Part shown: positions 46,248 through 64,000 of the stretch, piece by piece
Numbering within the stretch: position 1 is the stretch's first letter
Layout of the letters: each line of letters opens with the position of its first letter
Source of the DNA: a virus
Virus record (IMG/VR): IMGVR_UViG_3300025018_000100
Length of the DNA: 64,000 nucleotides
Direction: 5' to 3' (one strand)
Made by a program: the position numbers and the translations under genes
Notes under the pieces: generated by a model
What the model was told of the DNA's origin: nothing
The model's database searches: none
Seen by the model: only the letters and a program-made list of their open reading frames with translations

Positions 46248-49200
46248 TTAAACTCCTATTGCTGTTACTGTAACTTCTACACCTGTAACGGCTGATCCTG
46301 TATTGCTATACACATTTATATTTGCCCCATCTTTACTCCATCCAGGAATCAATACAGGTAAGTAGTTATTATCTGAACCTAAAGTCAATGTAATATTAGG
46401 TGGCTCAATAAATTGTCTGTTAGAGAAATCTATTGATTGTGGTGAAGTGGTAACAGTTATTGTTTCTGTATAAATTTTATTTTCTATATCAATGCTATAA
46501 TTAAGTTTATCTAGTAAATAATCTGCCTGATTAGGTTGTGAGTTTTGTACATTAAATCTAACTTGAAACCAACGGAAATTAATAGTAGAGCCACCATAAG
46601 GCTTCCAACCATCATTTGTAACCCCATCAGAGAATACTAGAGCATTAACATTACCGTTCGCATAGTAAGGATTAGCTGTAGTATATCTATACTCTAAGTT
46701 AGTATCAATAATACCGTTTTGTCCTTGGAAAGTTAATTGACCAGTATCATCAATAAATTGTTCTAAATTCACTAACTCATAACTAGTAGAACTATTAATA
46801 TTAGATAATAAATTAGTACCTGTTGGCATACCGTTAGCCCAATAACTATCACCTAGTGCTATAGCATTAGCGTTTATTACTCCAGCTATTAACGCCCAAC
46901 TATTAGCATTGGCATCGTCTCCAACATACTGTCCAGCATTCCAAATAGCATAAACATTTCCTGCATCTCCACCACTTGTGAGAGTACGGAAGTATGAATT
47001 ATATGATACAACAGCAGCCGTAGCATTGTCAAATCCTAAAATATGACCTATTCCCCCGAAATCTACGTCTACTAATACGTTATCTCCTGGAGAAGTTTCT
47101 GTAGCACCTGTTAAAATAATTTCTTTTAAGTCATTAAAAGTAGATGTTATACCCTGAGAACCATTAGCAGTTACAATAATACTTCCAGTAATTACGGAAC
47201 CCACATCTCTGATTTGAGTAGTATAAGTAGCGTTATCATCAGCTAAAAGATCAGTAGGACTACCACTAATAACAGTCCAACCAGAACTAGAACCATTAGC
47301 ATTATCTACAAGTCCAGAAGATGCACTACTTAAGCCACCTAAACTATCTGCAAAACTAGGATAATTATTTTCAAAAGGAGCTTCATTTGGTTGTCCCGTG
47401 ATAATGTTACTTGAAGGTTCGTCTTCACTCCAAGCTTTATATGCATCAATTCTAGCAGGTCTTTGTGTACTAATTGTTAATGTTCTAATTTCTTCACTCT
47501 CATTACTGCTAGTATCTTTAGTCTTAAAGAAATAGGTATAAACTCCATAATTTCCAATACTTAGAGTTACACTATTTGCAGGGGTAGCTACCTTAGCTAC
47601 AGGATCAGCAATAGGCCATTTACTAGCAGCATCAGCTGGGTCTACAATACCTCCAAGTCTTTTAATAATTATTTCATTTAGATCTAAATCAACAACAGTC
47701 CCGTCAGAATTAGTAGGAACCTTCCAAATAAACTTAAGAGTTTGTCCTTCTTGGCCCCCTGCTACTCCTTGAATATTTAAAGGAGGTGCAGATTTACCAA
47801 TTATACTTTGAGAAGCTTCAGCAGTAATACCACGTATACCTTTATTTAAAGGTACAACTCTAACAGTAATACTATTAATAGCAGAAATTCTGCCTCTATC
47901 AAGGTTATTAATAACATAACGAATCTTACCATCTGAGTCAATACCAGAGGCTGGAAGTTTAACAGTATTAAAAGTGGATAAATCTGCGCTAGAAGAGTTT
48001 AATTTGAAACTAACTTCGTAGTCACTAACTTCTTGATCTAAAATAGCATCAAAAGATATTACAGCTCTTACTATAATCCCTTGTGAAGTATCCTTATAAA
48101 GTTGCTCACTGATAGTAAGATTATCTACTTTTTTAATAGGTATTTCATTAATTTGTACTTCTTTTCTAACAAAAGGGCTTCTTCTACCGCTACTATTCAT
48201 ATTTCTAGCTCTAACTATACTAATTCCCGGATTAACGTCTTTCAATACTCTATCCGAAGACAGTGTTACAGGTTTAAAATCTAAGGGAACTTGAATATTG
48301 TATAATTGATTATTAGCTAAGTTAAAGTTACCTGTATACACATTTTCATTGTAATCTAAAGAAAAACTGTTAGCTACTACATCAACATTACCTATTAGAC
48401 CTACGATATCATTACTGATGTTAACAAAAGTTAAGCCGGAAACATTAGCTTTGATATTATCTCTTAATTCTATTTCATAAAAATTAGCAGTAGTCAAATC
48501 AACATTGTATGTAGGACTACTAATATCATAACTTACATTAGCTACAGCATATACGTTTTCTGAATAAAAACTAATATTATCACCAATTTCTACAGCAGGG
48601 GCAGTATAATAGTCTACTCTTGTTTTTAGTAAGCGAGTACCACTACTAATATCTAAGGTGATATTAGATAAATTATCCCAAACCCATGCACCTTTTGGTT
48701 CGATATTACCATCTACCCATACAGTTATTTCATTACTAGTTCTTGGTTTAATTTTAAGATCAAAAGTATTACTTCCTGTAAGGTTTTCAACATTATTTAC
48801 TACTTGTCTGTATTTATTTGAGCCAGTAATATAAAACTTTTTACTAGTAAAAAATCTAGTATCAATAATTTGTGCTAGCTTAGCATAAAAAGGTGGTGTA
48901 GGTAATACATCAAATAGCCCGACTCCTTGAGATTGTTCATTTTCAAAAGTAATAGTATTAGCACTAATATTATAAGATAAAATATTACTACTATATTGAG
49001 TTACGCTAGGATTGTATCCCACAAAATCTAATGCAGCTCCGGTATTAGATTTTTCATTAACAGGTACAGAAATGTAGTCTAAACCTTTTAGTCCATTAAA
49101 AAAGCCATCATTAACCTCTAAAAGGTGGTTAGAAAAATTTTTATCTTCTAACAAATTTAACCCTTCAACATTTAGCAATACATTAGAATCCATATCAATA

Positions 49201-49331
49201 GAAGATATTTCGGTTACTAATATAGGAATAGTTCCGGCTATACCTATAAATCCATTTTTTCCTGTTATAGCAGCAGTGTCTCCATTAGAAACATCACCTA
49301 TACTATTAGCTGTAAAATATAAACTTGCCAT
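46248..49331 (-). CDS. Large tail-tip/fibre protein with FN3-like domains (C-terminal gpJ-like part)
   Basis: VRARN..GRRS, GKSAPP.NI, Y.FKTKDTS.NES; coupled to J by TAATG. Confidence 0.7.
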   Translation of the reverse strand: MASLYFTANSIGDVSNGDTAAITGKNGFIGIAGTIPILVTEISSIDMDSNVLLNVEGLNLLEDKNFSNHLLEVNDGFFNGLKGLDYISVPVNEKSNTGAALDFVGYNPSVTQYSSNILSYNISANTITFENEQSQGVGLFDVLPTPPFYAKLAQIIDTRFFTSKKFYITGSNKYRQVVNNVENLTGSNTFDLKIKPRTSNEITVWVDGNIEPKGAWVWDNLSNITLDISSGTRLLKTRVDYYTAPAVEIGDNISFYSENVYAVANVSYDISSPTYNVDLTTANFYEIELRDNIKANVSGLTFVNISNDIVGLIGNVDVVANSFSLDYNENVYTGNFNLANNQLYNIQVPLDFKPVTLSSDRVLKDVNPGISIVRARNMNSSGRRSPFVRKEVQINEIPIKKVDNLTISEQLYKDTSQGIIVRAVISFDAILDQEVSDYEVSFKLNSSSADLSTFNTVKLPASGIDSDGKIRYVINNLDRGRISAINSITVRVVPLNKGIRGITAEASQSIIGKSAPPLNIQGVAGGQEGQTLKFIWKVPTNSDGTVVDLDLNEIIIKRLGGIVDPADAASKWPIADPVAKVATPANSVTLSIGNYGVYTYFFKTKDTSSNESEEIRTLTISTQRPARIDAYKAWSEDEPSSNIITGQPNEAPFENNYPSFADSLGGLSSASSGLVDNANGSSSGWTVISGSPTDLLADDNATYTTQIRDVGSVITGSIIVTANGSQGITSTFNDLKEIILTGATETSPGDNVLVDVDFGGIGHILGFDNATAAVVSYNSYFRTLTSGGDAGNVYAIWNAGQYVGDDANANSWALIAGVINANAIALGDSYWANGMPTGTNLLSNINSSTSYELVNLEQFIDDTGQLTFQGQNGIIDTNLEYRYTTANPYYANGNVNALVFSDGVTNDGWKPYGGSTINFRWFQVRFNVQNSQPNQADYLLDKLNYSIDIENKIYTETITVTTSPQSIDFSNRQFIEPPNITLTLGSDNNYLPVLIPGWSKDGANINVYSNTGSAVTGVEVTVTAIGV

Positions 49332-52306
49332 TAATTAATTCTCTCAATAATTTTAGTAGATGAAGGACTAGCGTATTCAAACTCAGTTCTTAAATCTAGT
49401 GGATATGCCGAAGTATCAGTTCTAGCATCAATTTCTAATTCATATGTTGTAGACCCATCAGCTAACCTTCTAGCTCTTGGTATTACATTTAATATAGGTG
49501 CTGGTGGAGCAATTAATGGACTGATAGTATCTATATATTTAACAGGAATATAATTTATAAGAGTATCACTATCAATATAAACATTAGATACATATTCACT
49601 AGCAGAAATCTGAATTTGGTCATCACCTCTTCTAGTTAATTGATTAACTTTGAATAATTTCTCACCTTGATTGGTATAAAAATTAGATGGGTCAATCTCC
49701 CCAATGGACCATAAGTCTCCTTTTACTGGGACATTATTACTAGTCCAATCTATATTAAAACCAAAAGTACTAAAAGTTTTGGAGTCTGGAATAAATCTTT
49801 GACTTACCGCTACCTCTACAAGATCAATACCAGATTGAGTATTGCCTGTTACATCAGCAGAAAAAGTGTTTGATAATAAATATAAACTTAATCTATCAGA
49901 TTCCATATTAATTACTCGTAATGCGAGAGGTTTCGTATTACTAGTAAATACGCTCTGACTTAATGCAGGAGAGGTAAAATGTTCTAATATAACAGTATCT
50001 TCTCCTATAACAGAATTACTAGCCACCCTTCCTGCGTAACCCCAAGCAGTTCCCGGCATTCTTTGAGATACACTAATAACATCACCGATAGTTAAATTAA
50101 CCGCTTCACTAGGAACGGTGAAATCAATTTTTCTTCTAATATATTTAGTAGATGCAATTAAATATTGAGCAAACCTAATAGCTTGCCCTCGTCTAGTACA
50201 ACCAGTAGCTTCAATTTGTTTTACATTCTCAATTTGATTTAATTCTCTTAAAGATTGAGGATCGTCTACTCGTACTGTTTCTCTCTTATAATGGTTATTA
50301 GGTTCAATATAACTAATTTCTACTCCGGTAATTAATTCTGATTCCTTAATACCGCTAATATTAACACTATCTTTGATAATATTAGCTTCACTGAAGTGAG
50401 CTACAGGAACTTCGTCGGGTAAATCCACATTAAGAGTAATTTTACCCCCACTATAGAATAGTACTCCACGGAAAATAGCAGCTACCTTCTGAATAATATC
50501 AAAAACCTGAGCCTGTGAACTTAATAATAAATCACAAATAAATCTACGCTCTTTAATAGCAATACCTGCATTTAGCCCGATTAATGCCTCGTTTACGGCA
50601 GTAAATCTATTTCTAGGCTTATATCTAAATGTACTGTCACTATATCCTACTACCCCATCAAATCTGCCGGTTTTTGGATTTACAGCATCACAGTATTGAG
50701 CAATTTTATAGAATCTATATTTATCAATATTAGCTTCTGGTATACCTAAACCATAAGTTGAATTAGTTAAAATATCATATAAAATCCAAGCAGGATTCTG
50801 AGTCCAAGCATAACTAAAAGTTCCGTCCCAAAAACCTTTGTAAATTTCTGGGTTATCTTCTGTTAGTACGGTACTACCAGTAGCCTGAAGTCTATATCCA
50901 TTAGCTTGGTAGCTGTTAATATTTGTTCCTGTAGGATCATTTACTACTTCTATTTCTCGCCAATCCACTTGGAAAGTAGAACTATTAAAGTCGGGAATAA
51001 TAGGCTGATTATAATTACTAGGTACCTTACATAACATACCTTTTACAATAGAGGTAAATGTTGGAATACCGCCTCGATATTCTGCAACAGCTTTAATAGC
51101 ATAGCCGATTACAGCTGTTCTTGTGTAAGCTACATCTTCGTGAGTTATTTCATCCCAAGAAATAAACTGAATAGCATCCTGAATTTTAGAACTATCACTG
51201 TCATTACTAGTTTTTTCTATAGTAAATCTATGACCACTAGAGCTTTTTGAAGCTTCTGGAATGGGAATATCGACAGTATATTTATACTGTACGTTAGTTT
51301 TCCCATCAATAGTAATAGGTTTTTCTGCAATTATATTAGAACCCGTATTATCATATACAGTAATCTTAGTAGCTACACTCCCAGAAAAAACATTTCCTTT
51401 ATCATCCATAGTTTGTAAAGCATTAATAACGAATACAAATCTTAGTACATCAATTCTAGACACACTAGTGTTTTGTAATACTACAGCAGCTCTAGGAATA
51501 CCTTCTAAATTACCTTTCTTTAGAGTAACAGGGTTACTTAGAGATTGAGGTACGACTGTTTCTTCACCAAAAATGTTTAGAGGTGTTTGAGTTAATGTAC
51601 CTGTAGTACTATCAGTATAAAAATATTCAGTGTTAATAGTACCATCAGTACTTAGATTAAGTAAGTCATCAATGTTACCATCATTAATTTCAATATCCTG
51701 AGGACCGTTTGGGTTAATTCTATATACAGGACCTTCACTAAGAGCTACAGTAACAAACATAATATCTGTAGAAAACAAATTATTTGGACTTTCTACCCCA
51801 GGGGCTGCAGTAGCACCCTTTCCACCACCTTTATTATGAACTAAAATATTATTAGCTATATAAGTATGATTATTTTCTACGGTTAAATTATACACAATAT
51901 CAACTTCTTTAGTAGTTTTACTAGCAATAGCTGTCATAGTACCAGTTTCTTGTACTAAACAATCTCCCTCTTTAAGAAGGCTTGCAGGTAAAAAGTCACC
52001 ATCTGGGGTTAAAATCCAGTGGTTATCTGTTACTACTAATTCGGTTTTATTCCATAATTTAAATACATGTACAGTATGTTTCTGTTCATGAATGTGAATT
52101 TGTGTTACTCTTTGTTGAGTAAAATTACCTTCACTATCATAACTAGTAACGTAAGTATCAACTCTAATATCTTCAATAGCAAGTTGACCGTTAGCTGTAG
52201 ATATCAAAGTACCTTCAGCGAAGCAACCACCCTTCCCGCCATGAATAAATGGAACTTTTTTATCTGCTATATTGAAATAATATTTAAAATTGTGGTTATT
52301 AAACAT
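49331..52306 (-). CDS. Central tail fibre/tip attachment protein gpJ-like, with N-terminal Hint domain
   Basis: KGGGKG..ESPNNLFS..ALSEGP, VPSNY, WDGTF..AWTQNPAWILYD, IAQYCD, GCTRRGQAIR (lambda J motifs). Confidence 0.92.
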   Translation of the reverse strand: MFNNHNFKYYFNIADKKVPFIHGGKGGCFAEGTLISTANGQLAIEDIRVDTYVTSYDSEGNFTQQRVTQIHIHEQKHTVHVFKLWNKTELVVTDNHWILTPDGDFLPASLLKEGDCLVQETGTMTAIASKTTKEVDIVYNLTVENNHTYIANNILVHNKGGGKGATAAPGVESPNNLFSTDIMFVTVALSEGPVYRINPNGPQDIEINDGNIDDLLNLSTDGTINTEYFYTDSTTGTLTQTPLNIFGEETVVPQSLSNPVTLKKGNLEGIPRAAVVLQNTSVSRIDVLRFVFVINALQTMDDKGNVFSGSVATKITVYDNTGSNIIAEKPITIDGKTNVQYKYTVDIPIPEASKSSSGHRFTIEKTSNDSDSSKIQDAIQFISWDEITHEDVAYTRTAVIGYAIKAVAEYRGGIPTFTSIVKGMLCKVPSNYNQPIIPDFNSSTFQVDWREIEVVNDPTGTNINSYQANGYRLQATGSTVLTEDNPEIYKGFWDGTFSYAWTQNPAWILYDILTNSTYGLGIPEANIDKYRFYKIAQYCDAVNPKTGRFDGVVGYSDSTFRYKPRNRFTAVNEALIGLNAGIAIKERRFICDLLLSSQAQVFDIIQKVAAIFRGVLFYSGGKITLNVDLPDEVPVAHFSEANIIKDSVNISGIKESELITGVEISYIEPNNHYKRETVRVDDPQSLRELNQIENVKQIEATGCTRRGQAIRFAQYLIASTKYIRRKIDFTVPSEAVNLTIGDVISVSQRMPGTAWGYAGRVASNSVIGEDTVILEHFTSPALSQSVFTSNTKPLALRVINMESDRLSLYLLSNTFSADVTGNTQSGIDLVEVAVSQRFIPDSKTFSTFGFNIDWTSNNVPVKGDLWSIGEIDPSNFYTNQGEKLFKVNQLTRRGDDQIQISASEYVSNVYIDSDTLINYIPVKYIDTISPLIAPPAPILNVIPRARRLADGSTTYELEIDARTDTSAYPLDLRTEFEYASPSSTKIIERIN
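51833..52225 (-). mobile_element. Minimal Hint (intein/BIL-like) domain, 131 aa, with Lys at +1
   Basis: GG|CFAEGTLI ... VTDNH ... VYNLTV ... YIANNILVHN|KGG; no endonuclease. Confidence 0.9.
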
Positions 52307-53075
52307 TAAATTCTTCTCCTACCTTTACTATATCATTTTTACCGTGGTTCGCTGTCTTTACATACCCACTAACAAACTGACCACCTTGTCTATGCATACC
52401 ATAAATTAAGGCTAGACTATTACTACTGTCGGTACTATTAGTTAAACTACCAAACGCATCATTATCTTTTCTGTCTTGAATATCGGTTTCTTGTTCGGGG
52501 GCACTGGGTTTTTTTTGAAATAAAGACATAATACCTCCAAGTATTAGATTAATTCCTATTCCCATCAGTGTTTGTGCAGCATATCCAGCTACTCCAGTAA
52601 GCCCACTATATGCTGCAGCACTTTGAGCAAGAAAACTACCTCCCGCAGCACCTCCCGCAGCTCCTCCAACAGCCGCGCCTCCAGCTGCTCCCCCAGCTGC
52701 CCCAACTGCTCCGCCAGCCGCTAATAAAGCAGGAAGAGCAAAAAAAGCAAACGCAGCTATAGCTGCACCAAGTATAATACCACTTTTACCACCCCCACCA
52801 CCACTAATCGTAGGAACTACATATACTTCAGTAATATATTTTGGATTTTTTATTATAGTTGTTTCGGTAATCAGTTTCTTATCTTGATCTAAAATTAATA
52901 ATAAATCCTTACTAGTTTCGAAGTTACTAATATCAGTAAACTTTAAAATCAATTCTTCAAATGTACTTTTTAAAGCATAACTAAGACCTAAAAAATCAGC
53001 CACATCAAAAGTAAATTCTGATACATTACTTGTGTATTTATGAAGAGAGGTGTGAAAGTGTACTTTTATTTTCAT
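52299..53075 (-). CDS. Tail assembly protein I-like (ubiquitin-like N-terminus), copy 2
   Basis: MKIKVHFH beta-grasp start, VVPTISGGGG, Gly/Ala hydrophobic tract, FGSL.N..LIYG. Confidence 0.8.
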   Translation of the reverse strand: MKIKVHFHTSLHKYTSNVSEFTFDVADFLGLSYALKSTFEELILKFTDISNFETSKDLLLILDQDKKLITETTIIKNPKYITEVYVVPTISGGGGGKSGIILGAAIAAFAFFALPALLAAGGAVGAAGGAAGGAAVGGAAGGAAGGSFLAQSAAAYSGLTGVAGYAAQTLMGIGINLILGGIMSLFQKKPSAPEQETDIQDRKDNDAFGSLTNSTDSSNSLALIYGMHRQGGQFVSGYVKTANHGKNDIVKVGEEFNV

Positions 53076-53813
53076 TTAAAATTCCTCTCCTACATTTATC
53101 ATATCAGTCTTACCATGATTTTTAGTTTTTATATATCCGCTCACAAACTGACCACCAATTCTGTGCATTCCATATATAATACCTATCGCGCTTCTACTAT
53201 CTGTACTATTAGCAAGACTACCATAAGCATTATTCTCTGTTCTAGCCCCAGAATCAGGTACTTTTTGCTGGTTATTATTAATTTTAGGTTTTGGAGCTAA
53301 CCCAGAGAGTACCAACGAAAAACCTATACTTAAAGCTAATTGCCCTAAAGTAGTTAAACTTACTGTAGTAGCAGCGGCTGCTGCGGCTGCTCCACTACCT
53401 GCTGCAGCGATAGCACCGCCACTAAGAGTAGCACCACCAGCTGTTGAGCTAGTAGCTAATAGACCTAAACTCGCACCACCTGTAAAGAAAGATAATGCAA
53501 CTGCAGCAATAATTATAATACCGGCAATTAGACCACCATTACCGCCGCCACCATTTATAATAGGTACTAACGTAATCTCTTTCTTAGGTTTAAAAAATAC
53601 TTCATCCATAGGTACTACTTTACCATCACTTACTAGTAAAGCTTCTTCTTTAAAGTTATCTTTAACTACTGTTCTAAAATAGTTTTCAAGGTCTGGAAAC
53701 ATATTAGCTGCTGCTGTAACAGCATCACAATAACTTGTTACGTTTACTGTAATACTATCTACACCATTAGTAAATTTAGTTAATAGCTTATGAAATCGTA
53801 AAGTTACCTGCAT
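53076..53813 (-). CDS. Tail assembly protein I-like (ubiquitin-like N-terminus), copy 1
   Basis: MQVTLRFH, LVPIINGGGG, hydrophobic tract, YGSLAN..IIYG. Confidence 0.8.
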   Translation of the reverse strand: MQVTLRFHKLLTKFTNGVDSITVNVTSYCDAVTAAANMFPDLENYFRTVVKDNFKEEALLVSDGKVVPMDEVFFKPKKEITLVPIINGGGGNGGLIAGIIIIAAVALSFFTGGASLGLLATSSTAGGATLSGGAIAAAGSGAAAAAAATTVSLTTLGQLALSIGFSLVLSGLAPKPKINNNQQKVPDSGARTENNAYGSLANSTDSRSAIGIIYGMHRIGGQFVSGYIKTKNHGKTDMINVGEEF

Positions 53814-53823
53814 CTATAAACCT

Positions 53824-54195
53824 CTATTTAAGGTGTCGAACCTCAAAAGGTTCATATCTTAACATTTTTAGTTTTTTATCGTACCAATAGATAAAGAACT
53901 TATCATTCCATCCCACAATAAATTTATAATTATCAAATGTTGTGCTGGCCATATCTTGTTCACTAGGAATAGGATTTTCATCACCAGGGTGACTATGAAA
54001 TATACCCCAACAAGTGTCCTCATGGTCTAATAATGCTACAGGGTCTAATACAAAACTAGTTTTAGGATATAGGCTAATATTTTTACAAAATACGTATTTA
54101 AAATCTTTAGTTATTAATCCGCACGCTTCTCTTGGGTAATCTGCGTGAGCATGTCTACCCATATCATCTTTTAATTTGTTATAAAGCTCTTCCAC
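53824..54195 (-). CDS. JAB/MPN+ metalloprotease (N-terminal half of lambda K)
   Basis: YPREACG ... HSHP ... PSEQD (E, HxH, S, D). Confidence 0.92.
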   Translation of the reverse strand: MEELYNKLKDDMGRHAHADYPREACGLITKDFKYVFCKNISLYPKTSFVLDPVALLDHEDTCWGIFHSHPGDENPIPSEQDMASTTFDNYKFIVGWNDKFFIYWYDKKLKMLRYEPFEVRHLK

Positions 54196-54611
54196 CTGTA
54201 ATGTCCTTCAGTGTATTGTTTGTAATAGTTACCATATGATCCGATCCAGCTATTTCTATCAATAGTAATTTGAAGTAATTTATTATCTCCAACGTACATT
54301 GCCACATGATTTGGCATATTTGTTGCGCCTAGAGTCATTACTATAATATCAAAAGGCCTCATTTCACCATTATGTATTTCAACCCAGCCATATTTTTCAT
54401 CTCTAAACATATTAAGAGGGTGGTGTAAATCTGGATGATTGTACCAATCATCATCGGTTATATTACAAAAGGTACTTGTACTATACCATATATCAATATC
54501 ATGTTCTTTCTTTAGTACATATTTGATTAAATTACCACAATCAATACCGGTTACTGGGTCTTCCCCTAAATGTTTATAGGGTAATCCTTTATATTTTTCA
54601 TACCAAGTCAT
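54171..54611 (-). CDS. NlpC/P60 peptidase (lambda K C-terminal-like), copy 2
   Basis: GLPY..G..GIDC ... NHVAMYVG. Confidence 0.85.
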   Translation of the reverse strand: MTWYEKYKGLPYKHLGEDPVTGIDCGNLIKYVLKKEHDIDIWYSTSTFCNITDDDWYNHPDLHHPLNMFRDEKYGWVEIHNGEMRPFDIIVMTLGATNMPNHVAMYVGDNKLLQITIDRNSWIGSYGNYYKQYTEGHYRWKSFITN

Positions 54612-55023
54612 AGTGTCTATAACATCCTATTAATATTTTTATATCATCTTCATTAAGTAATTTAAAAGTTGCGTATCCGTTAAAAGGTAAATGAATATAA
54701 GTACCTGCTTCAATATACATTCCAAAATGAACATGTCTCATATTTTTAGTTCTAAATATAAGAATATCATATTCTTGGATGTCTCGCAAATTAATTTTTT
54801 TCCAATTATTTATTTCGTTAATTATAGTTTCATAAGGTACAATTTGATACCATTTTGCATCAATATTAGTAACACCATCAGTACCTGCTCTACTTAAACA
54901 TTCTTTTAAATCTATATTTAGAAATCTATTATATATGTCAACAATTAAGGTTACGCAATTCATCCCCTGCCATTCATGTTTTATCTTAATGTAATGTTCA
55001 TATTTTTTTAAACCAGTGCTCAT
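54598..55023 (-). CDS. NlpC/P60 peptidase, copy 1
   Basis: GMNCVTLI ... YDILIF ... HFGMYI..G.YIH. Confidence 0.8.
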   Translation of the reverse strand: MSTGLKKYEHYIKIKHEWQGMNCVTLIVDIYNRFLNIDLKECLSRAGTDGVTNIDAKWYQIVPYETIINEINNWKKINLRDIQEYDILIFRTKNMRHVHFGMYIEAGTYIHLPFNGYATFKLLNEDDIKILIGCYRHYDLV

Positions 55024-56179
55024 AATAAGGAAAAACCTCTATAAAATTTTCATTTCTTATACTATCTAATTTATCTGTATAATTTTTAAATTTAGATAGA
55101 AGATGACTATTATCTTGATTGTTCATAAATTTTAACCATACTAATATATGATTAACCTCATTTAAATGTAATCTTTTATCGATAGATAAATATTCTTTAT
55201 ATTTTTTATTTATAATTCTCTTTTCTTCAATAGGTAAACATTGAATGCTTAAATAGTTAGGAAAATATAATAAAGTGCCGTTAAAAAATATATCGTGAGT
55301 TTTGCACCAGTCGATCAACCTTAGCATACTATGTATGCTGTATATGTTAATAACACTACTAATTGTAGTTATATATTGTTTAACTTCCAAGCAATTAGCT
55401 TCAAACTGATCCCAGTTTAGTCCTTTTCTACTATATTCTGCTTCTTTGCCCATACCGTCCATACTAGGCCATAATTCAACTTCGTTGAAGTGGCTCCATA
55501 GTTCAGGTAAATCATATTCTTTATAGCGAAGTACACTAAGATTAGTATTATATGTAAGTCTAAGATTGGTATATCCATTACTAATTAAATATTCTAGTAA
55601 TTCATAATGTTCATCCATCATTAGCGGCTCTCCGCCCGCAAAATAAATTTCTTCTACATTATCTATAAATGTCGGAATGTCGTCCCACAAAGCTGGTTTA
55701 TTCCAATTTTTATGAGGACCTTTGAAATTTGTTTTACCAGTTAATTTCTGCCAATCATTATACCATTTAGTACTACTTTCAGGCCCGCACATTCTACACC
55801 TAAAATTGCAAACATTACTGAATCTAATATCAAAATAAGAAATGGGCACATCTACACTACCGTCAGGGTTAGTTTTATCCCAAAGGTCATGTTTATGTAC
55901 CCATTTTTTATTTTGATCGGTTCTGAAACTAGTCCCGCGTTGAGCCGCTTCGCGGCTATGGCAGGTTAAATAACATTCTCTAGGTATCTCATTATTAATA
56001 TATTGACTTCTAATGTGTTTCATTGGATTGCCATTCCAAACAGCATTATAGCTATCTTCACTAGTACCTAATTCTGTTTTTTCTTTTTGGTTCTGCAAGT
56101 AACAACAAAGTCTATATTTACCTTCTACATCTCCGTGTATATGTATCCAAGGAAGGATACATTTGTTATTATCAGTCAT
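54998..56179 (-). CDS. Radical SAM enzyme with N-terminal twitch domain
   Basis: CILPW..RLCC..C.TC; CNFRCRMC; FAGGEP; YNTN; SMDG; ATG 56179 follows a GAGGGG SD. Confidence 0.92.
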   Translation of the reverse strand: MTDNNKCILPWIHIHGDVEGKYRLCCYLQNQKEKTELGTSEDSYNAVWNGNPMKHIRSQYINNEIPRECYLTCHSREAAQRGTSFRTDQNKKWVHKHDLWDKTNPDGSVDVPISYFDIRFSNVCNFRCRMCGPESSTKWYNDWQKLTGKTNFKGPHKNWNKPALWDDIPTFIDNVEEIYFAGGEPLMMDEHYELLEYLISNGYTNLRLTYNTNLSVLRYKEYDLPELWSHFNEVELWPSMDGMGKEAEYSRKGLNWDQFEANCLEVKQYITTISSVINIYSIHSMLRLIDWCKTHDIFFNGTLLYFPNYLSIQCLPIEEKRIINKKYKEYLSIDKRLHLNEVNHILVWLKFMNNQDNSHLLSKFKNYTDKLDSIRNENFIEVFPYYEHWFKKI

Positions 56180-56218
56180 TATTCCCCTCAAAATTTAAAT
56201 ACAATTATGACGTTTTAT

Positions 56219-58979: not shown

Positions 58980-61900
58980 TTACACACTTCTAAGTCCTTT
59001 TCTAATTGGTCCGTTATTTCTGAAATCTTTTAATACTACATCAATAACAAACTGTTTACCGTCAAAACTTACCTGAGGTTGACCATCAGTTTGTTGGGCT
59101 GTGCCATTGTTAACAATATTAACTTTAACATCAGGCTGTCCACCAGAACCCCCTCTATTCATATTTCTTAAATTATTAAGACCTATATCTTGAGAAGCTC
59201 TCTTGTTCATAACAAACTCGCCTGGCTCTAACATTGCAGGCACACTATCTCTTAATAGATTTGGACCTCCAGCAGCCATATATCTAACAGGACCCCCTGC
59301 CGCCATGGTTCTACCATCTAAGATTCCATACTGAGCAACGGATAAAGCACTACTAGTTCCTACGTTACTACCAGCAGTAAATCCAGCACCTCCGCCAAAC
59401 ATACTACTTATTCCAGTACCAATAAGCCCTAGGATACTACCAAAACCGCTACTAGAACCGCCAGAACTTCCTAAAGCACTAGATAAGCTACTACCTAAAA
59501 AGTCAAATACTTTTGTGGCTGTGTTACCAAACGAACTTAATCCTCTTGATAAAAGTCCGTTTTCTCCAAAAACACTATCAAAAAATCCAGTAGTTTGTTC
59601 TTTGTTTTTATTAATAGTTTCTGTAACAGCTTTATCTGAATTTTCCGCCGCACTAAGTACTTCGGATTTTATAGATTTACTAGCACCTAAGCTAACATCA
59701 GAAGTGTATAAGGGGAGGTCACGAGAGTTACCTCTCTCTTCGCTCCCAAAAAGATCACCAAAAACACTACCAATCATATCTTCAACAGGTTTTACAATAA
59801 GTCTATCCGTAACTTTTTCTCTTATACCATCTAAGATACCTACGAATAAATCTCTTGCACCTTCTTTAAAGTTGTCCATAGTAAGGGTACCATCAAAATA
59901 AGCCTTGCTTAAATCCTGAATACCTGTTCCAATTTTATTTTTAAGAACTGAACTAATATCGTCAGATAGTAATCTAAGGGCGTCTCCTTGCTCCCTTAAA
60001 TTACTCATGGTTAAACTATGATTAGAATTTGCTTTTATTTGTTCATTTTCTAACTGAGTTATAGTATTTTTAAATTCTTCTTCGTTTATCCCTATTTCTT
60101 TTCTTTTATTATCTATCTTAATTTGTAATGCTGCGAGTTCTGCGGCATTTTCTCTGTTAAGATTTGATATCTTAATGTCGTTTAATTCTGCTTGTAATTT
60201 AGCTAATTCTCCTATATCAAGAATTTCATCTTGTATAGCTCTAGCTTTAAGAGACCTTAATTTGTCCTGAGTATTAGCTTCTTGTGTGGCTGCGTCTGCT
60301 TGAGTAGCTGCTAAGTCCTTAGTAGCATTAATAGTACTATCTAATTGTTCAATAGAAGTTTTAATAGAAGAATTTAGTGAATCAATTTGTTCATCAAAAT
60401 TAGCTACACTAATCAAACTAGGATTACTAGTTCCGTAGAATCCTGCTAATGTTTTAATAAATTCATTGAATATTCTAGCCAATTCAATAGGAAATTGAGT
60501 TAATGCTTGTATTTCTTTCTGAACAGTCAATAATCTGGTTTTTTCTAATTCTAATGCAGCTAATTTATTAGTTTTATTAATATCAATTTCTTGTTTTTTT
60601 ATAGCTAATTCTGCGTCTGCTCTTATTTTTTCTTGATCTAATATATCTAATCTATTAATTAAATTTTTCTGTTCATTAATGCTTTTCTGCTCAGAAATTT
60701 GCTTCTCTCTTAATAAAAGAGCAGCTTTCTGGCTATTATCTTTAGCTTTAAAAGTTTTTTCCGCTTCTAAATTATCTATCTCTAGATTAATAATCCTAGA
60801 TTCATTATCAAATTTTTTCTTTTCTGCTTCTATACGAAGATTAATTAGATTTAATTCTTTTTCTAAGTTACTAGCTGCTTGTTCTGCTATTAAATTTCTT
60901 CTATCTTCCCTAGTACCAAAATTAGGAAAATTAGCTTGATTATCAGCAGTTCTCTGTAATCGTAAGTCTCTTAATAATGCAGCACGTTCTATTGCTAGTT
61001 CTTTTCCCTTTAGTTCTGTATCTAATAGTTTATTAGCTAAATTTAATTCTTCAACTTTATTTTCGTTTATTTGTTGTTGTTTTTTAAATTTAATATTTTG
61101 AGTTTCATTATATGCCTTGCTTATATCTAAAAGAGCATTTTCTTTAGTTAGTAGAGCTTCTAAAGCTTTATTTCTATTATCATAAGCTTCTTGAGATAAT
61201 AAAATATTATTAGATAATTTTTGAATTTCTAATTTTTGCTTTTCAATATCTAATTGTTGTAAAGACTCCCTTAGTCTTTTTTCTTCAGCTATTGCAATTT
61301 TTTGTATTTCTTCTTTTGATTTTAGGAAAGCACCAAATAAAGCCTTTTCCGTAGTTTTTCGGAGATTTCCTAAGGCTACAATCTTAGCATTTTGTTCTAA
61401 ATCTTTTTCTCCTCGACTAGCAGCTTCTTTTTGTAAAGCAGCGAGTTCTATTGATCCTTGTTTTGCTATATTAATAGCAGTTACTAAATTTTCTGCTTTG
61501 TTAGCAGCTATTTCAATACCATTTTCTGCAAATTTACCATTAAATAAGTTAATTATCCCAGAAGATTCTAAGTTATCTACTAAACTTATTTGGCTAGAAA
61601 AAGCTTTAGTAATATTTACAGATAATTGCTCAATAGCTTGAAGCTCTTGGGTTATTTTTCTTGCTTCTTTTCCTTGATCTTTAAGTCTATTTATAATAGC
61701 AACTAATTTAGGGTCTAACTCACCATATTCGTTAGTGTAGGCTTCTTGTAATTTAACTAATTCACTAGTGATAGTAGTTATTGCTGTAAGTTTTTGTGCT
61801 GCCTTCTCTGCATCAAGAGAACCTGAAGCAAAAGAATCAGAGAAACTTTTACTTGCGTTTATGCTTTTACCTAACTCAGAAACTAAATTACCTACACCCG

Positions 61901-64000
61901 TTTTTAATTTGGGTAATCCTTTGTCGCTAATTTCAGAAATAGATGCTTGAATACCTCCAAAACCTATAGTAGCTACTTGATCATTAAATTTTATAAAACC
62001 TTGTAAAGCTAAATCAGCTACTTGTTGAATAGGAATTCCAGCAGTTCTACTGATTTCTTCAATAATACCCGATAATTGAGTTTTACCAGATTCTAAATTT
62101 TTAACTGCTTCCTCCAAAGTAGCTACCTCTAATCGACTACTTCTTAATTCCTCTCCACTTAGTTTTGTTTGTTTATTTTTTAATCTAGTAATAGTTTGAT
62201 TAAGTCTTTCTATTTGATTTAAGACACCTAATCTTAGTACTTCTTCTTTACTTAAAGCCTGTGCCTGTTCAAATTGTTCTTTATTAGGTCTAAATTCATT
62301 TCTTCCTGCAAAATTAGTTCCATTGTCTTTTGCTAATTGATTAGCAAATTGCTGTCTAATCCCAGAAGTGTTAGTTAATCCCTCAATAATTTGTTTATTT
62401 ACATCAGAATATTTTTCCGCTAGTTTTTCTCTAGCCTCTCTATCTAAATCTAATTCTTTTGCTAACTTTTCTAAATTGCTATTTTTAGATATAAAAGTAG
62501 TAGCAGCTAAAGCTTGGGCTCCTTCTTTAGCTCTATCAATTTCTTCTGTTAAAGATTTGAAAAATTTAATTACGCTATCTAAAATATCTACACCAAATAA
62601 ACTTGCGATAAATTGAATAGTAGATCCTACAAGAAAAAACTTATTTGCTAAGGAAACTGCGGCACTAATTGCTAACCCTGTTCTTCTAAAAGCTGCACCA
62701 ATAAAATCAGCTGATCTAGCTATACCTTTAGATAGTCCAGAACTATTATTCATAACCGTATTTAGATTAATATAAGAAACCTCTAAAGCTTTAACTCTTC
62801 TTGTAGCTCTTTCAATACTTCTATTTGCTGCATCAATTTGTTCCTTAGTTCTTCCCTGTACAGTTAAATATTTTTGTTTAGTAGCGATAAACTTATTTTC
62901 TTGTTCAATTTGAGCTTTAATTAAAGGAGTTGTTTCTCTAATTTGTTGGTTAGTTAGAGAATCTGCGTTATCTATTAAGTTATTAAATTGACTGGGAGAG
63001 AGTTTACCTCCGAAAGCATTTTTACCTCCGGTAAAACCTTTATTACCTTCAAATTCTGCTTTTGTATTATCTAAAGTATTTAAATTATCTTTTATAGTAT
63101 TTTTACCAAATAATCTAATATTTTTAGCTTTTTCTTCAATTCGTGTAAAAAATCTATCGATACTTTGTCCGCTCTCAGTAACAAAACTAGAAATACCTGC
63201 TGATAGACTACTAAAAATCTGAACAGATAGTACCGCAGCTAGTGCTCCAATGTTTCCAGGAGTTTGACTAAAGAAATCTGCTAAACTAGACAAAGGACCG
63301 GCTACAGCTTGTCCGACTTTAGTAGCTAAATCAATAACTTTAGCAGATAATTCTTCTAGACTTTGTTGCGTAGTAGGTAAAACGGTGTTAATAATACTGA
63401 ATTTACGCTCACCTTCTTCGATAACTTCATTAATGAAAGCTTGTCTTTTTTCATAATTAGTTAAACTAGATGTTGCAACATTTAATTGTCTAGCATACTT
63501 TTCTACCGCAGGGTCAATACGAGTAAAAATACCTAATTCATCTAAAAGTTCTGGTTCTAACTTAGCCGCACCTCGAACTAATCTTTGAAATGCATCTGTT
63601 AATGTTCTACCTAAGGCACGGCTAGCTTTTAGAGCAACCCCCGTAATTCTTTCTAATTGTTCACCGCCAAATCCAGCAGATAGTGCAATGTTAGCATTTT
63701 GAGCAGCTTCTGCTAAAGTTAACTGACCTTTGGTAATTTCTTGAATTTTAGCAAGAATTTTATTACCGTTAGAGCCTATTTCGTTAGCTAATGTAATAGT
63801 ACCACGTACAATTTCTTCTGATTGAGTTGCTCTTTGTAATGCCGCGAATGCCTGTTGCAATGCGAATACGCTAGCAGCCGCACCAGCATAAGCACCAACT
63901 AACCCACCTAAGCCTCTAGCTTGTTGAGAAAAAGCTCTACCTGCACTAGCTTGAGTAGTAGTAAGACGATTACTTTTACTATCAAGTTTATCTACTTCGT
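58980..64000 (-). CDS. Tape measure protein (T5 pb2-like), 5' end outside the window
   Basis: Frame is open to the window edge (SAGRAFSQQARGLGGLVGAYAGAAA); KLEPELLDELGI; long coiled coil; C-terminal MAAGG..DSVPAMLEPGEFV. Confidence 0.93.
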   Translation of the reverse strand, partial: EVDKLDSKSNRLTTTQASAGRAFSQQARGLGGLVGAYAGAAASVFALQQAFAALQRATQSEEIVRGTITLANEIGSNGNKILAKIQEITKGQLTLAEAAQNANIALSAGFGGEQLERITGVALKASRALGRTLTDAFQRLVRGAAKLEPELLDELGIFTRIDPAVEKYARQLNVATSSLTNYEKRQAFINEVIEEGERKFSIINTVLPTTQQSLEELSAKVIDLATKVGQAVAGPLSSLADFFSQTPGNIGALAAVLSVQIFSSLSAGISSFVTESGQSIDRFFTRIEEKAKNIRLFGKNTIKDNLNTLDNTKAEFEGNKGFTGGKNAFGGKLSPSQFNNLIDNADSLTNQQIRETTPLIKAQIEQENKFIATKQKYLTVQGRTKEQIDAANRSIERATRRVKALEVSYINLNTVMNNSSGLSKGIARSADFIGAAFRRTGLAISAAVSLANKFFLVGSTIQFIASLFGVDILDSVIKFFKSLTEEIDRAKEGAQALAATTFISKNSNLEKLAKELDLDREAREKLAEKYSDVNKQIIEGLTNTSGIRQQFANQLAKDNGTNFAGRNEFRPNKEQFEQAQALSKEEVLRLGVLNQIERLNQTITRLKNKQTKLSGEELRSSRLEVATLEEAVKNLESGKTQLSGIIEEISRTAGIPIQQVADLALQGFIKFNDQVATIGFGGIQASISEISDKGLPKLKTGVGNLVSELGKSINASKSFSDSFASGSLDAEKAAQKLTAITTITSELVKLQEAYTNEYGELDPKLVAIINRLKDQGKEARKITQELQAIEQLSVNITKAFSSQISLVDNLESSGIINLFNGKFAENGIEIAANKAENLVTAINIAKQGSIELAALQKEAASRGEKDLEQNAKIVALGNLRKTTEKALFGAFLKSKEEIQKIAIAEEKRLRESLQQLDIEKQKLEIQKLSNNILLSQEAYDNRNKALEALLTKENALLDISKAYNETQNIKFKKQQQINENKVEELNLANKLLDTELKGKELAIERAALLRDLRLQRTADNQANFPNFGTREDRRNLIAEQAASNLEKELNLINLRIEAEKKKFDNESRIINLEIDNLEAEKTFKAKDNSQKAALLLREKQISEQKSINEQKNLINRLDILDQEKIRADAELAIKKQEIDINKTNKLAALELEKTRLLTVQKEIQALTQFPIELARIFNEFIKTLAGFYGTSNPSLISVANFDEQIDSLNSSIKTSIEQLDSTINATKDLAATQADAATQEANTQDKLRSLKARAIQDEILDIGELAKLQAELNDIKISNLNRENAAELAALQIKIDNKRKEIGINEEEFKNTITQLENEQIKANSNHSLTMSNLREQGDALRLLSDDISSVLKNKIGTGIQDLSKAYFDGTLTMDNFKEGARDLFVGILDGIREKVTDRLIVKPVEDMIGSVFGDLFGSEERGNSRDLPLYTSDVSLGASKSIKSEVLSAAENSDKAVTETINKNKEQTTGFFDSVFGENGLLSRGLSSFGNTATKVFDFLGSSLSSALGSSGGSSSGFGSILGLIGTGISSMFGGGAGFTAGSNVGTSSALSVAQYGILDGRTMAAGGPVRYMAAGGPNLLRDSVPAMLEPGEFVMNKRASQDIGLNNLRNMNRGGSGGQPDVKVNIVNNGTAQQTDGQPQVSFDGKQFVIDVVLKDFRNNGPIRKGLRSV

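Follow-up and report, generated by a model that had tools for sequence, protein, structure and literature searches.

A ubiquitin-tail-like leader and a predicted BIL-type Hint domain at the N-terminus of gpJ in the tail-tip module of an uncultured siphophage

In phage lambda, gpI, gpK and gpL act on the trimer of gpJ, the central tail fibre. Here, we describe the corresponding genes in a 64,000-nucleotide stretch of viral DNA (IMG/VR record IMGVR_UViG_3300025018_000100, at its full length referred to as the window), and in particular the N-terminus of their gpJ, where a 27-residue leader resembling the tail of a ubiquitin-like domain (Ubl) is followed by a predicted Hint domain. The closest described system is the lambda L-K-I-J set, also named TAPK-TAPI-TAPJ (PMC1779556). 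The two share gene order, with JAB and NlpC/P60 peptidases beside gpI and the gpJ hub domains following; a gpI in which a ThiS/MoaD-like Ubl ending in Gly is joined by a Gly-rich/hydrophobic linker to a C-terminal domain; and a gpL of an Fe-S cluster family. In 2006, Iyer, Burroughs and Aravind put forward the idea that JAB cuts the gpI Ubl after its terminal Gly, and they also noted fusions of TAPI with TAPJ (PMC1779556). The window holds the L-K-I-J tail-tip assembly genes of an uncultured large siphophage, but it differs from lambda in several ways: K is split in three (a JAB gene and two NlpC/P60 genes, NlpC first), I is duplicated, a radical SAM gene is inserted, and gpJ, about 27% identical to its lambdoid counterparts, has a 158-residue N-terminal extension made up of leader and Hint domain.

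Published structures give a frame for this comparison. Lambda J is modelled from residue 1 within the hub; gpI forms a trimeric plug, visible in virions at residues 101/134-223 alone, with hydrophobic helices that are presumed to pass into the outer membrane; the particle lacks gpK. Together, lambda gpL, gpI and gpJ's N-terminal part correspond to the baseplate hub protein pb3 of T5 (PMC10721106), which differs from the present system in being one polypeptide without Ubl, JAB or Hint.

Parts of the gpJ extension also have parallels outside tail tips. The A-type BIL or PT-HINT domains (Amitai 2003; Dassa 2004; both as related in PMC7664689 and PMC7765530; structure 2lwy) are described as having the same Cys1, TxxH and His-Asn residues, no +1 nucleophile or endonuclease and a low-complexity, non-conserved insertion site; they are predicted to cleave at both junctions and yield mainly N- and C-cleaved products. 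The domain studied here differs in its host protein, a phage central tail fibre, in its N-flank, a conserved Ubl-tail-like leader, and in its nearly invariant junctions. In Tetrahymena thermophila, the BIL2 domain of BUBL1 (6tmm, 6y75; Chiarini et al. 2021, as related by PMC8616854) likewise stands directly after a Ubl-like ...RGG (KGG in gpJ), with lysine amines downstream; there a whole Ubl forms the N-flank and conjugation has been shown, whereas here the N-flank is a predicted 27-residue hairpin. The Bil anti-phage system (Hör et al., bioRxiv 10.1101/2023.09.04.556158) also brings together a Ubl, a JAB-type deubiquitinase and the central tail fibre, but it is host-encoded and uses E1 and E2, whereas all the parts described here are phage-encoded, with no E1 or E2. 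The pairing of JAB with Ubl (Iyer 2006) and the idea of a phage activity directed against Bil (Hör 2023) are therefore already published. A limited literature search found no earlier report of a Hint domain or a Ubl-tail-like leader on gpJ, returning only unrelated inteins (phiCbK TerL, RNR), and the combination of the two seems to be new.

The reading that we favour, with a probability of about 0.5, is that gpJ is a precursor from which the Hint domain removes the extension by itself, and that the leader is probably a handle or a cleavage site for JAB. The evidence begins with the Hint domain (gpJ residues 28-158), which is modelled by AlphaFold2 (AF2) with a predicted local distance difference test score (pLDDT) of 96-98. 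It has Cys1, the block B TxxH and the terminal His-Asn, and lacks a +1 nucleophile and an endonuclease. Among 49 Hint-bearing homologues C28, T93, H96 and N158 are each present in all 49 and H157 in 47; the +1 residue K159 is Lys in 49/49, and in 56 of 57 sequences of a wider set, while K163 (+5) is invariant as well. The junctions, written with a slash at the domain boundary as GKGG/C ... VHN/KGGxK, are nearly invariant in about 50 homologues; the G/K-rich low-complexity linker in which the insertion lies varies in length among relatives. By sequence, the best matches in the PDB are Tetrahymena BUBL1 BIL2 (6tmm/6y75; E 2.5e-10) and a BIL domain of Clostridium thermocellum (2lwy; E 6e-9), with canonical mini-inteins following from E 1.4e-6, at least three orders of magnitude weaker. 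The same two BIL structures lead a Foldseek search (TM-score 0.81-0.87), where canonical mini-inteins score nearly as well.

By sequence and predicted fold, then, the gpJ Hint domain is assigned to the BIL type, with all catalytic residues in place. It had initially been treated as a mere add-on to gpJ, a view that does not fit an autoprocessing domain with conserved catalytic residues and an invariant, non-nucleophilic +1 Lys. Since BIL domains without a +1 nucleophile mainly cleave at their N- and C-termini, the domain alone can, by analogy, be expected to free gpJ at K159, and JAB would therefore not be needed to mature gpJ in this phage.

A canonical class 1 intein was considered as a separate assignment and fits neither the +1 residue (Lys in place of Cys, Ser or Thr) nor the position of the insertion in a variable G/K-rich linker.

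The nearest non-phage relatives of the gpJ Hint are cellular proteins (P0055-P0066, P0113 and P0117) with a signal peptide, two tandem Hint domains and then a Tim44-like domain. Their junctions are as in gpJ (RGGGG/C ... VHN/KG(G)C).

The body of gpJ indicates what such cleavage would release. From residue 159 (KGGGKG...) onward it can be aligned with lambda J, starting at that protein's residue 3 (KGSSKG...), so that K159 and K163 match lambda K3 and K7; it also aligns with the lambda J structures 8iyk and 9e7m, and hub domains, FNIII-A and the Phage-tail_3 domain are all recognised. Because K159 corresponds to residue 3 of a protein that is modelled from residue 1, residues 1-158 are an extension. 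The two lysines can also be read in another way. In an ATP-independent tagging reaction of the BUBL kind, the Hint domain would turn the last Gly of the leader into a thioester and pass it to K159, K163 or another tip-protein lysine, and JAB would remove the resulting isopeptide-linked mini-tag. BIL2, the best solved relative (TM-score 0.8), has its RGG/Cys1 aligned with KGG/C28 and is reported (PMC8616854) to link the Ubl before it to lysines by isopeptide bonds, with no need for ATP; moreover, both lysines are invariant and JAB is a neighbouring enzyme of isopeptidase type. Yet the match to lambda K3 and K7 means that these may simply be gpJ residues, a 27-residue hairpin is not a Ubl, canonical mini-inteins are nearly as good by fold, and half of the leader-bearing gpJ proteins have no Hint domain. 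We hold this reading to be highly improbable, and the least probable of those discussed here; if true, tail-tip assembly would be gated by a miniature, wholly phage-encoded cycle of conjugation and removal.

The leader precedes the Hint domain; its start codon overlaps the end of gpI-2, the second of the two gpI paralogues, and follows an AGGAG nine bases upstream. IMG/VR was scanned twice for relatives, giving 378 and 361, and the clade therefore comprises at least 361-378 contigs, with no cultured member. A census of leader and Hint domain was made on 94 non-redundant gpJ N-termini from all loci fetched. Leader and Hint occur together in 41, the leader without Hint in 43 and neither in 10, and there is no case of Hint without leader. 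The leader, with P19, I21 and G23 of its motif, is thus present in 84/94 relatives, and the survey of gpJ homologues for the motif, which the initial annotation had proposed as a check, came out positive. The same annotation saw in the leader a minimal 24-residue Ubl-like tag, which is not supported in that form: the leader has 27 residues and is predicted by AF2 to form one beta-hairpin (strands 10-13 and 16-19, pLDDT about 70-75) with no beta-grasp, so that it copies the tail of a Ubl alone.

Where the leader is missing, the first residue of gpJ falls no more than about two residues from the position that follows the GG, and its start codon overlaps the gpI end. These starts are not mis-called, since an in-frame stop is found 3-17 codons upstream. 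In relatives with a leader and no Hint domain, the leader is joined directly to a G/K-rich linker, and lambda J likewise starts with the G/K-rich stretch found after the GG of its relatives. As leaderless gpJ and lambda J both begin just after the GG position, the leader appears from these alignments to be a discrete, detachable module with the GG as its boundary, and such a boundary fits, but does not establish, a pro-peptide.

A leader with these properties could instead be retained in the virion as a structural or assembly element, a hairpin that augments the hub sheet or docks on gpI or gpL, with its likeness to the Ubl tail due to common descent or a shared partner and not to proteolysis. 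The hairpin predicted at gpJ residues 10-19 suits this role, since the tip proteins of lambda are held together by beta-sheet augmentation. The TAPI-TAPJ fusions (Iyer 2006, PMC1779556) indicate that I and J segments get joined in evolution, and the J profile phrog_31 also matches gpI-1. Close relatives nevertheless manage with no leader, their gpJ beginning exactly at the GG boundary, and in this phage a Hint domain with invariant residues for cleavage at Asn separates the leader from gpJ, so that the leader would stay only if the Hint domain ligates. Retention is for these reasons distinctly improbable in our estimate, and removal of the leader remains the preferred reading.

The link between gpJ and the gpI proteins is a short motif, found as LVPIINGG in gpI-1 (residues 82-89), VVPTISGG in gpI-2 (86-93) and KVPFIHGG in gpJ (17-24). 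The strict pattern VP.I.GG was searched for in all stop-to-stop open reading frames (ORFs) of at least 100 residues in the six frames of the window (22,075 residues). It occurs exactly three times, solely in these proteins, against a mean of 0.0 in 200 shuffles, and it is therefore not a product of chance. All 84 sequences aligned for the gpI family have P84 and G88; in 74 gpJ sequences P19, I21 and G23 are each at least 90% conserved, rising to 49/49, 48/49 and 49/49 in the Hint-bearing subset, which makes them as conserved as the catalytic residues of the Hint domain. Both families share the pattern hydrophobic-P-x-hydrophobic-x-G-[GSA], after which G or K usually comes. The three motifs first picked out by eye in the window are thus real and homologous in position, in the form P-x-I-x-G-[GSA]. 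As gpL, gpI and gpJ's N-terminal part correspond to T5 pb3, the GG-motif junctions lie where one chain has been split in three. Inspection by eye of the variable x positions in gpI tails and gpJ leaders across loci gave no clear pattern of co-variation.

Two gpI genes per locus are the rule in the clade. An AF2 model of gpI-1 from an 84-sequence alignment has a pLDDT of 96-98 over residues 1-88, with the topology beta-beta-alpha-alpha-beta-beta and a last strand, EITLVPII, that runs into the motif. The best Foldseek matches of this domain are MoaD, SAMP1 and CysO (TM-score about 0.7 on the target), and the predicted fold is that of a MoaD/SAMP-like beta-grasp ending in the motif, in agreement with the initial assignment of gpI-1 as a Ubl. 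The Ubl is followed by GGGG, by predicted hydrophobic helices at residues 93-110 and 153-172, and by the TAPI-C or plug region; matches to phrog_32 cover residues 141-234 and 146-245 of the two proteins. The second paralogue aligns with gpI-1 over its full length at 36% identity, and this alignment assigns it the same architecture, Ubl included. Lambda supplementary mass spectrometry contains one gpI peptide (9.9% coverage), too little to show whether the Ubl is kept in the particle. In the Hint-less SVES-type clade (L001, L085, L086), the single gpI keeps the Ubl and its PxIxGG tail and is without the long Gly/Ala-rich hydrophobic helices of the window's two gpI.

The stand-alone JAB has an intact zinc site of the JAMM type (E...HxH...S..D), its residues E23, H67, H69, S78 and D81 being invariant in 66 homologues; HxH and S are separated by one residue more than the canonical seven. 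The two NlpC/P60 proteins appear, from alignment with the catalytic triad of lambda K, to have the Cys-His-polar triad of C40 peptidases, with Cys, His and His in the first and Cys, His and Gln in the second. In the 40 Hint-clade loci, both NlpC/P60 genes are present in 39 and JAB in 40. JAB and gpI are found in every locus with enough upstream DNA, including those whose gpJ is leaderless, so the presence of JAB does not track the gpJ leader. A more distant Hint-less clade has gpL, JAB, one gpI and gpJ, and no NlpC. In lambda, the tape measure gpH is cut to gpH* once the tail has been assembled; the JAB and NlpC peptidases of K type may be candidates for this cut, and perhaps likewise in this phage.

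With an intact JAB beside three copies of the motif, the initial annotation suggested that JAB may mature all three proteins; it would then cut gpJ after G24, and the Hint domain would be an ordinary intein that splices and restores a continuous leader-gpJ chain. The identical spacing of P-x-I-x-G-[GSA] in gpI and gpJ and the intact JAMM site suit this model, as do the Hint-less relatives, whose leader with its G/K-rich linker looks like a spliced product, and the leaderless gpJ proteins that start after the GG position. It is the Hint domain itself that speaks against it: the +1 residue is Lys in 56/57 homologues, the closest relatives are BIL domains that mainly cleave, and the domain lacks a homing endonuclease and occupies a low-complexity linker, a setting usual for BIL domains but not for selfish inteins. 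We consider the model unlikely. JAB as the maturation protease of gpJ is accordingly not supported as first stated, given a Hint domain that from its sequence could itself free gpJ at K159.

JAB could also act mainly in counter-defence, as a deubiquitinase that strips a host Bil-type Ubl from the central fibre, a role compatible with the favoured reading. The Ubl of Bil is attached to the central tail fibre, the authors of that study raise such a role for the deubiquitinases of phage tails (10.1101/2023.09.04.556158), and JAB is universally kept in the clade. It always travels, however, with its own Ubl-bearing gpI, which is enough to explain its presence, and nothing in the present data ties this phage or its host to Bil, so that we judge a mainly counter-defensive role highly improbable.

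The favoured reading, self-removal of the gpJ extension by the Hint domain with the leader as a handle or site for JAB, would proceed as follows. JAB would cut each gpI after the GG, as proposed in Iyer 2006, freeing the Ubl and leaving the plug part in the tip; until insertion, the Ubl probably keeps the membrane-active helices of gpI soluble. The gpJ precursor would be cleaved by the Hint domain at both of its own ends, giving a mature gpJ that begins at K159 with a lambda-like N-terminus; since the lambda-type N-terminus is built into the hub, the extension would have to go. Because the leader is equally conserved with and without a Hint domain, its conservation points to an additional function before it is removed: as a copy of the Ubl tail, it may give gpJ a handle for JAB or for a K/I assembly complex. 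In Hint-less relatives JAB would be the only evident candidate for leader removal, and in this phage its cleavage of the leader would be auxiliary to the Hint domain.

Several observations weigh against this reading. Some BIL domains ligate instead of only cleaving. If the Hint domain does work as proposed, a JAB cut of the leader is redundant, and it is then unaccounted for that the Hint clade conserves the leader so strongly. The presence of JAB cannot test the role of the leader, because JAB and gpI accompany leaderless gpJ too, and gpI alone explains why JAB is there. In a profile-profile comparison (hhalign) of the gpJ N-terminus with gpI, a weak alignment (P 0.007, probability 5%) places the leader on the Ubl end, and the same comparison gave no support for homology of the gpJ N-terminal domain with TAPI-C. 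Lastly, a search for cultured relatives, from which virion proteomics might be drawn, found none closer than 27% gpJ identity.

The clade bears on questions that lambda has left standing: what the JAB and NlpC domains of K do, a question that dates from 2006, and how the N-terminal domain of gpI, which lambda structures do not show, is handled. It offers cleaner material, with a separate 123-residue protease, two candidate Ubl substrates and a third candidate reduced to a 27-residue tail mimic. It also places a conserved, putatively autoprocessing Hint domain in a virion structural protein directly after a ubiquitin-tail-like sequence, an arrangement whose sole tested parallel among those found, the ciliate BUBL locus, is reported to perform enzyme-free conjugation. 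The clade thus poses the question whether Ubl-tail-directed proteolysis, Hint self-cleavage or a combination of the two matures phage tail tips.

The siphophage tail module occupies 46-64 kb of the window on the minus strand. All of the genes named in the initial annotation were recovered in place on that strand from ORFs, Pfam and PHROGs. In order of transcription the module comprises tape measure, DUF2460-like, gpL, radical SAM/SPASM, two NlpC/P60, Prok-JAB, two gpI, gpJ and a 1,027-residue protein. Their coordinates, and those of the elements within gpI and gpJ, are collected in table 1.

Table 1. Features of the tail-tip module, with positions in the window (aa, amino acids).
Feature	Position	Strand	Support and remarks
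gpL-like hub protein, 497 aa	56424..57917	-	PF05100 Phage_tail_L E 1.5e-22; phrog_18; upstream border of the module
Radical SAM/SPASM protein, between gpL and NlpC genes	54998..56191	-	PF04055, PF13186
NlpC/P60 paralogue 1, 141 aa	54598..55023	-	PF00877 24.7 bits (cut-off 23)
NlpC/P60 paralogue 2, 146 aa	54171..54611	-	PF00877 40 bits
Stand-alone Prok-JAB JAB/JAMM metalloprotease, 123 aa	53824..54195	-	PF14464 E 7.5e-12, 45.6 bits (cut-off 25)
gpI-1, 245 aa	53076..53813	-	phrog_32 'tail assembly protein', E about 1e-19 to 1e-20
gpI-1 last strand of predicted Ubl and tail VPIINGG, residues 83-89	53547..53567	-	
gpI-2, 258 aa	52299..53075	-	phrog_32 E 3.5e-20
gpI-2 tail of putative Ubl, VPTISGG, residues 87-93	52797..52817	-	
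gpJ, 991 aa	49331..52306	-	phrog_31, PF13550, PF24801, PT-HINT
gpJ leader, residues 1-27	52226..52306	-	motif VPFIHGG, residues 18-24, at 52235-52255, then KGG
gpJ Hint domain, predicted BIL type, C28-N158	51833..52225	-	PT-HINT 42 bits
gpJ body from K159: hub domains, FNIII-A, Phage-tail_3 domain	49331..51832	-	phrog_31 E 8.6e-114; PF24801, PF13550

The order gpL, two NlpC/P60, JAB, two gpI, Hint-gpJ and a protein of about 1,040 residues is kept across the Hint clade. The radical SAM gene is found at the same place in 4 of 28 related Hint-clade loci with enough upstream DNA and is accessory, outside the conserved core. In the window it sits inside the tail-tip module, adjoining gpL, whose family binds a 4Fe-4S cluster. 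The gpL protein is about twice as long as lambda gpL; its Phage_tail_L match falls mainly at residues 371-493, and a large N-terminal part lies outside the match.

At the other end of the module, the gene for the 1,027-residue protein (46248-49331, minus strand) begins at the gpJ stop codon. The protein is without a Pfam or PHROG match, and a homologue of about 1,040-1,090 residues follows gpJ in every relative examined. The gpJ of the window stops at about the position of lambda J residue 835, and the protein may therefore supply, from a gene of its own, the distal fibre and receptor-binding portion. The tape measure protein (58980-63998, minus strand) leaves the window at more than 1,672 residues; those of the Hint-less relatives L001 and L002 have 4,004 and 4,524 residues, lengths that imply extremely long tails.

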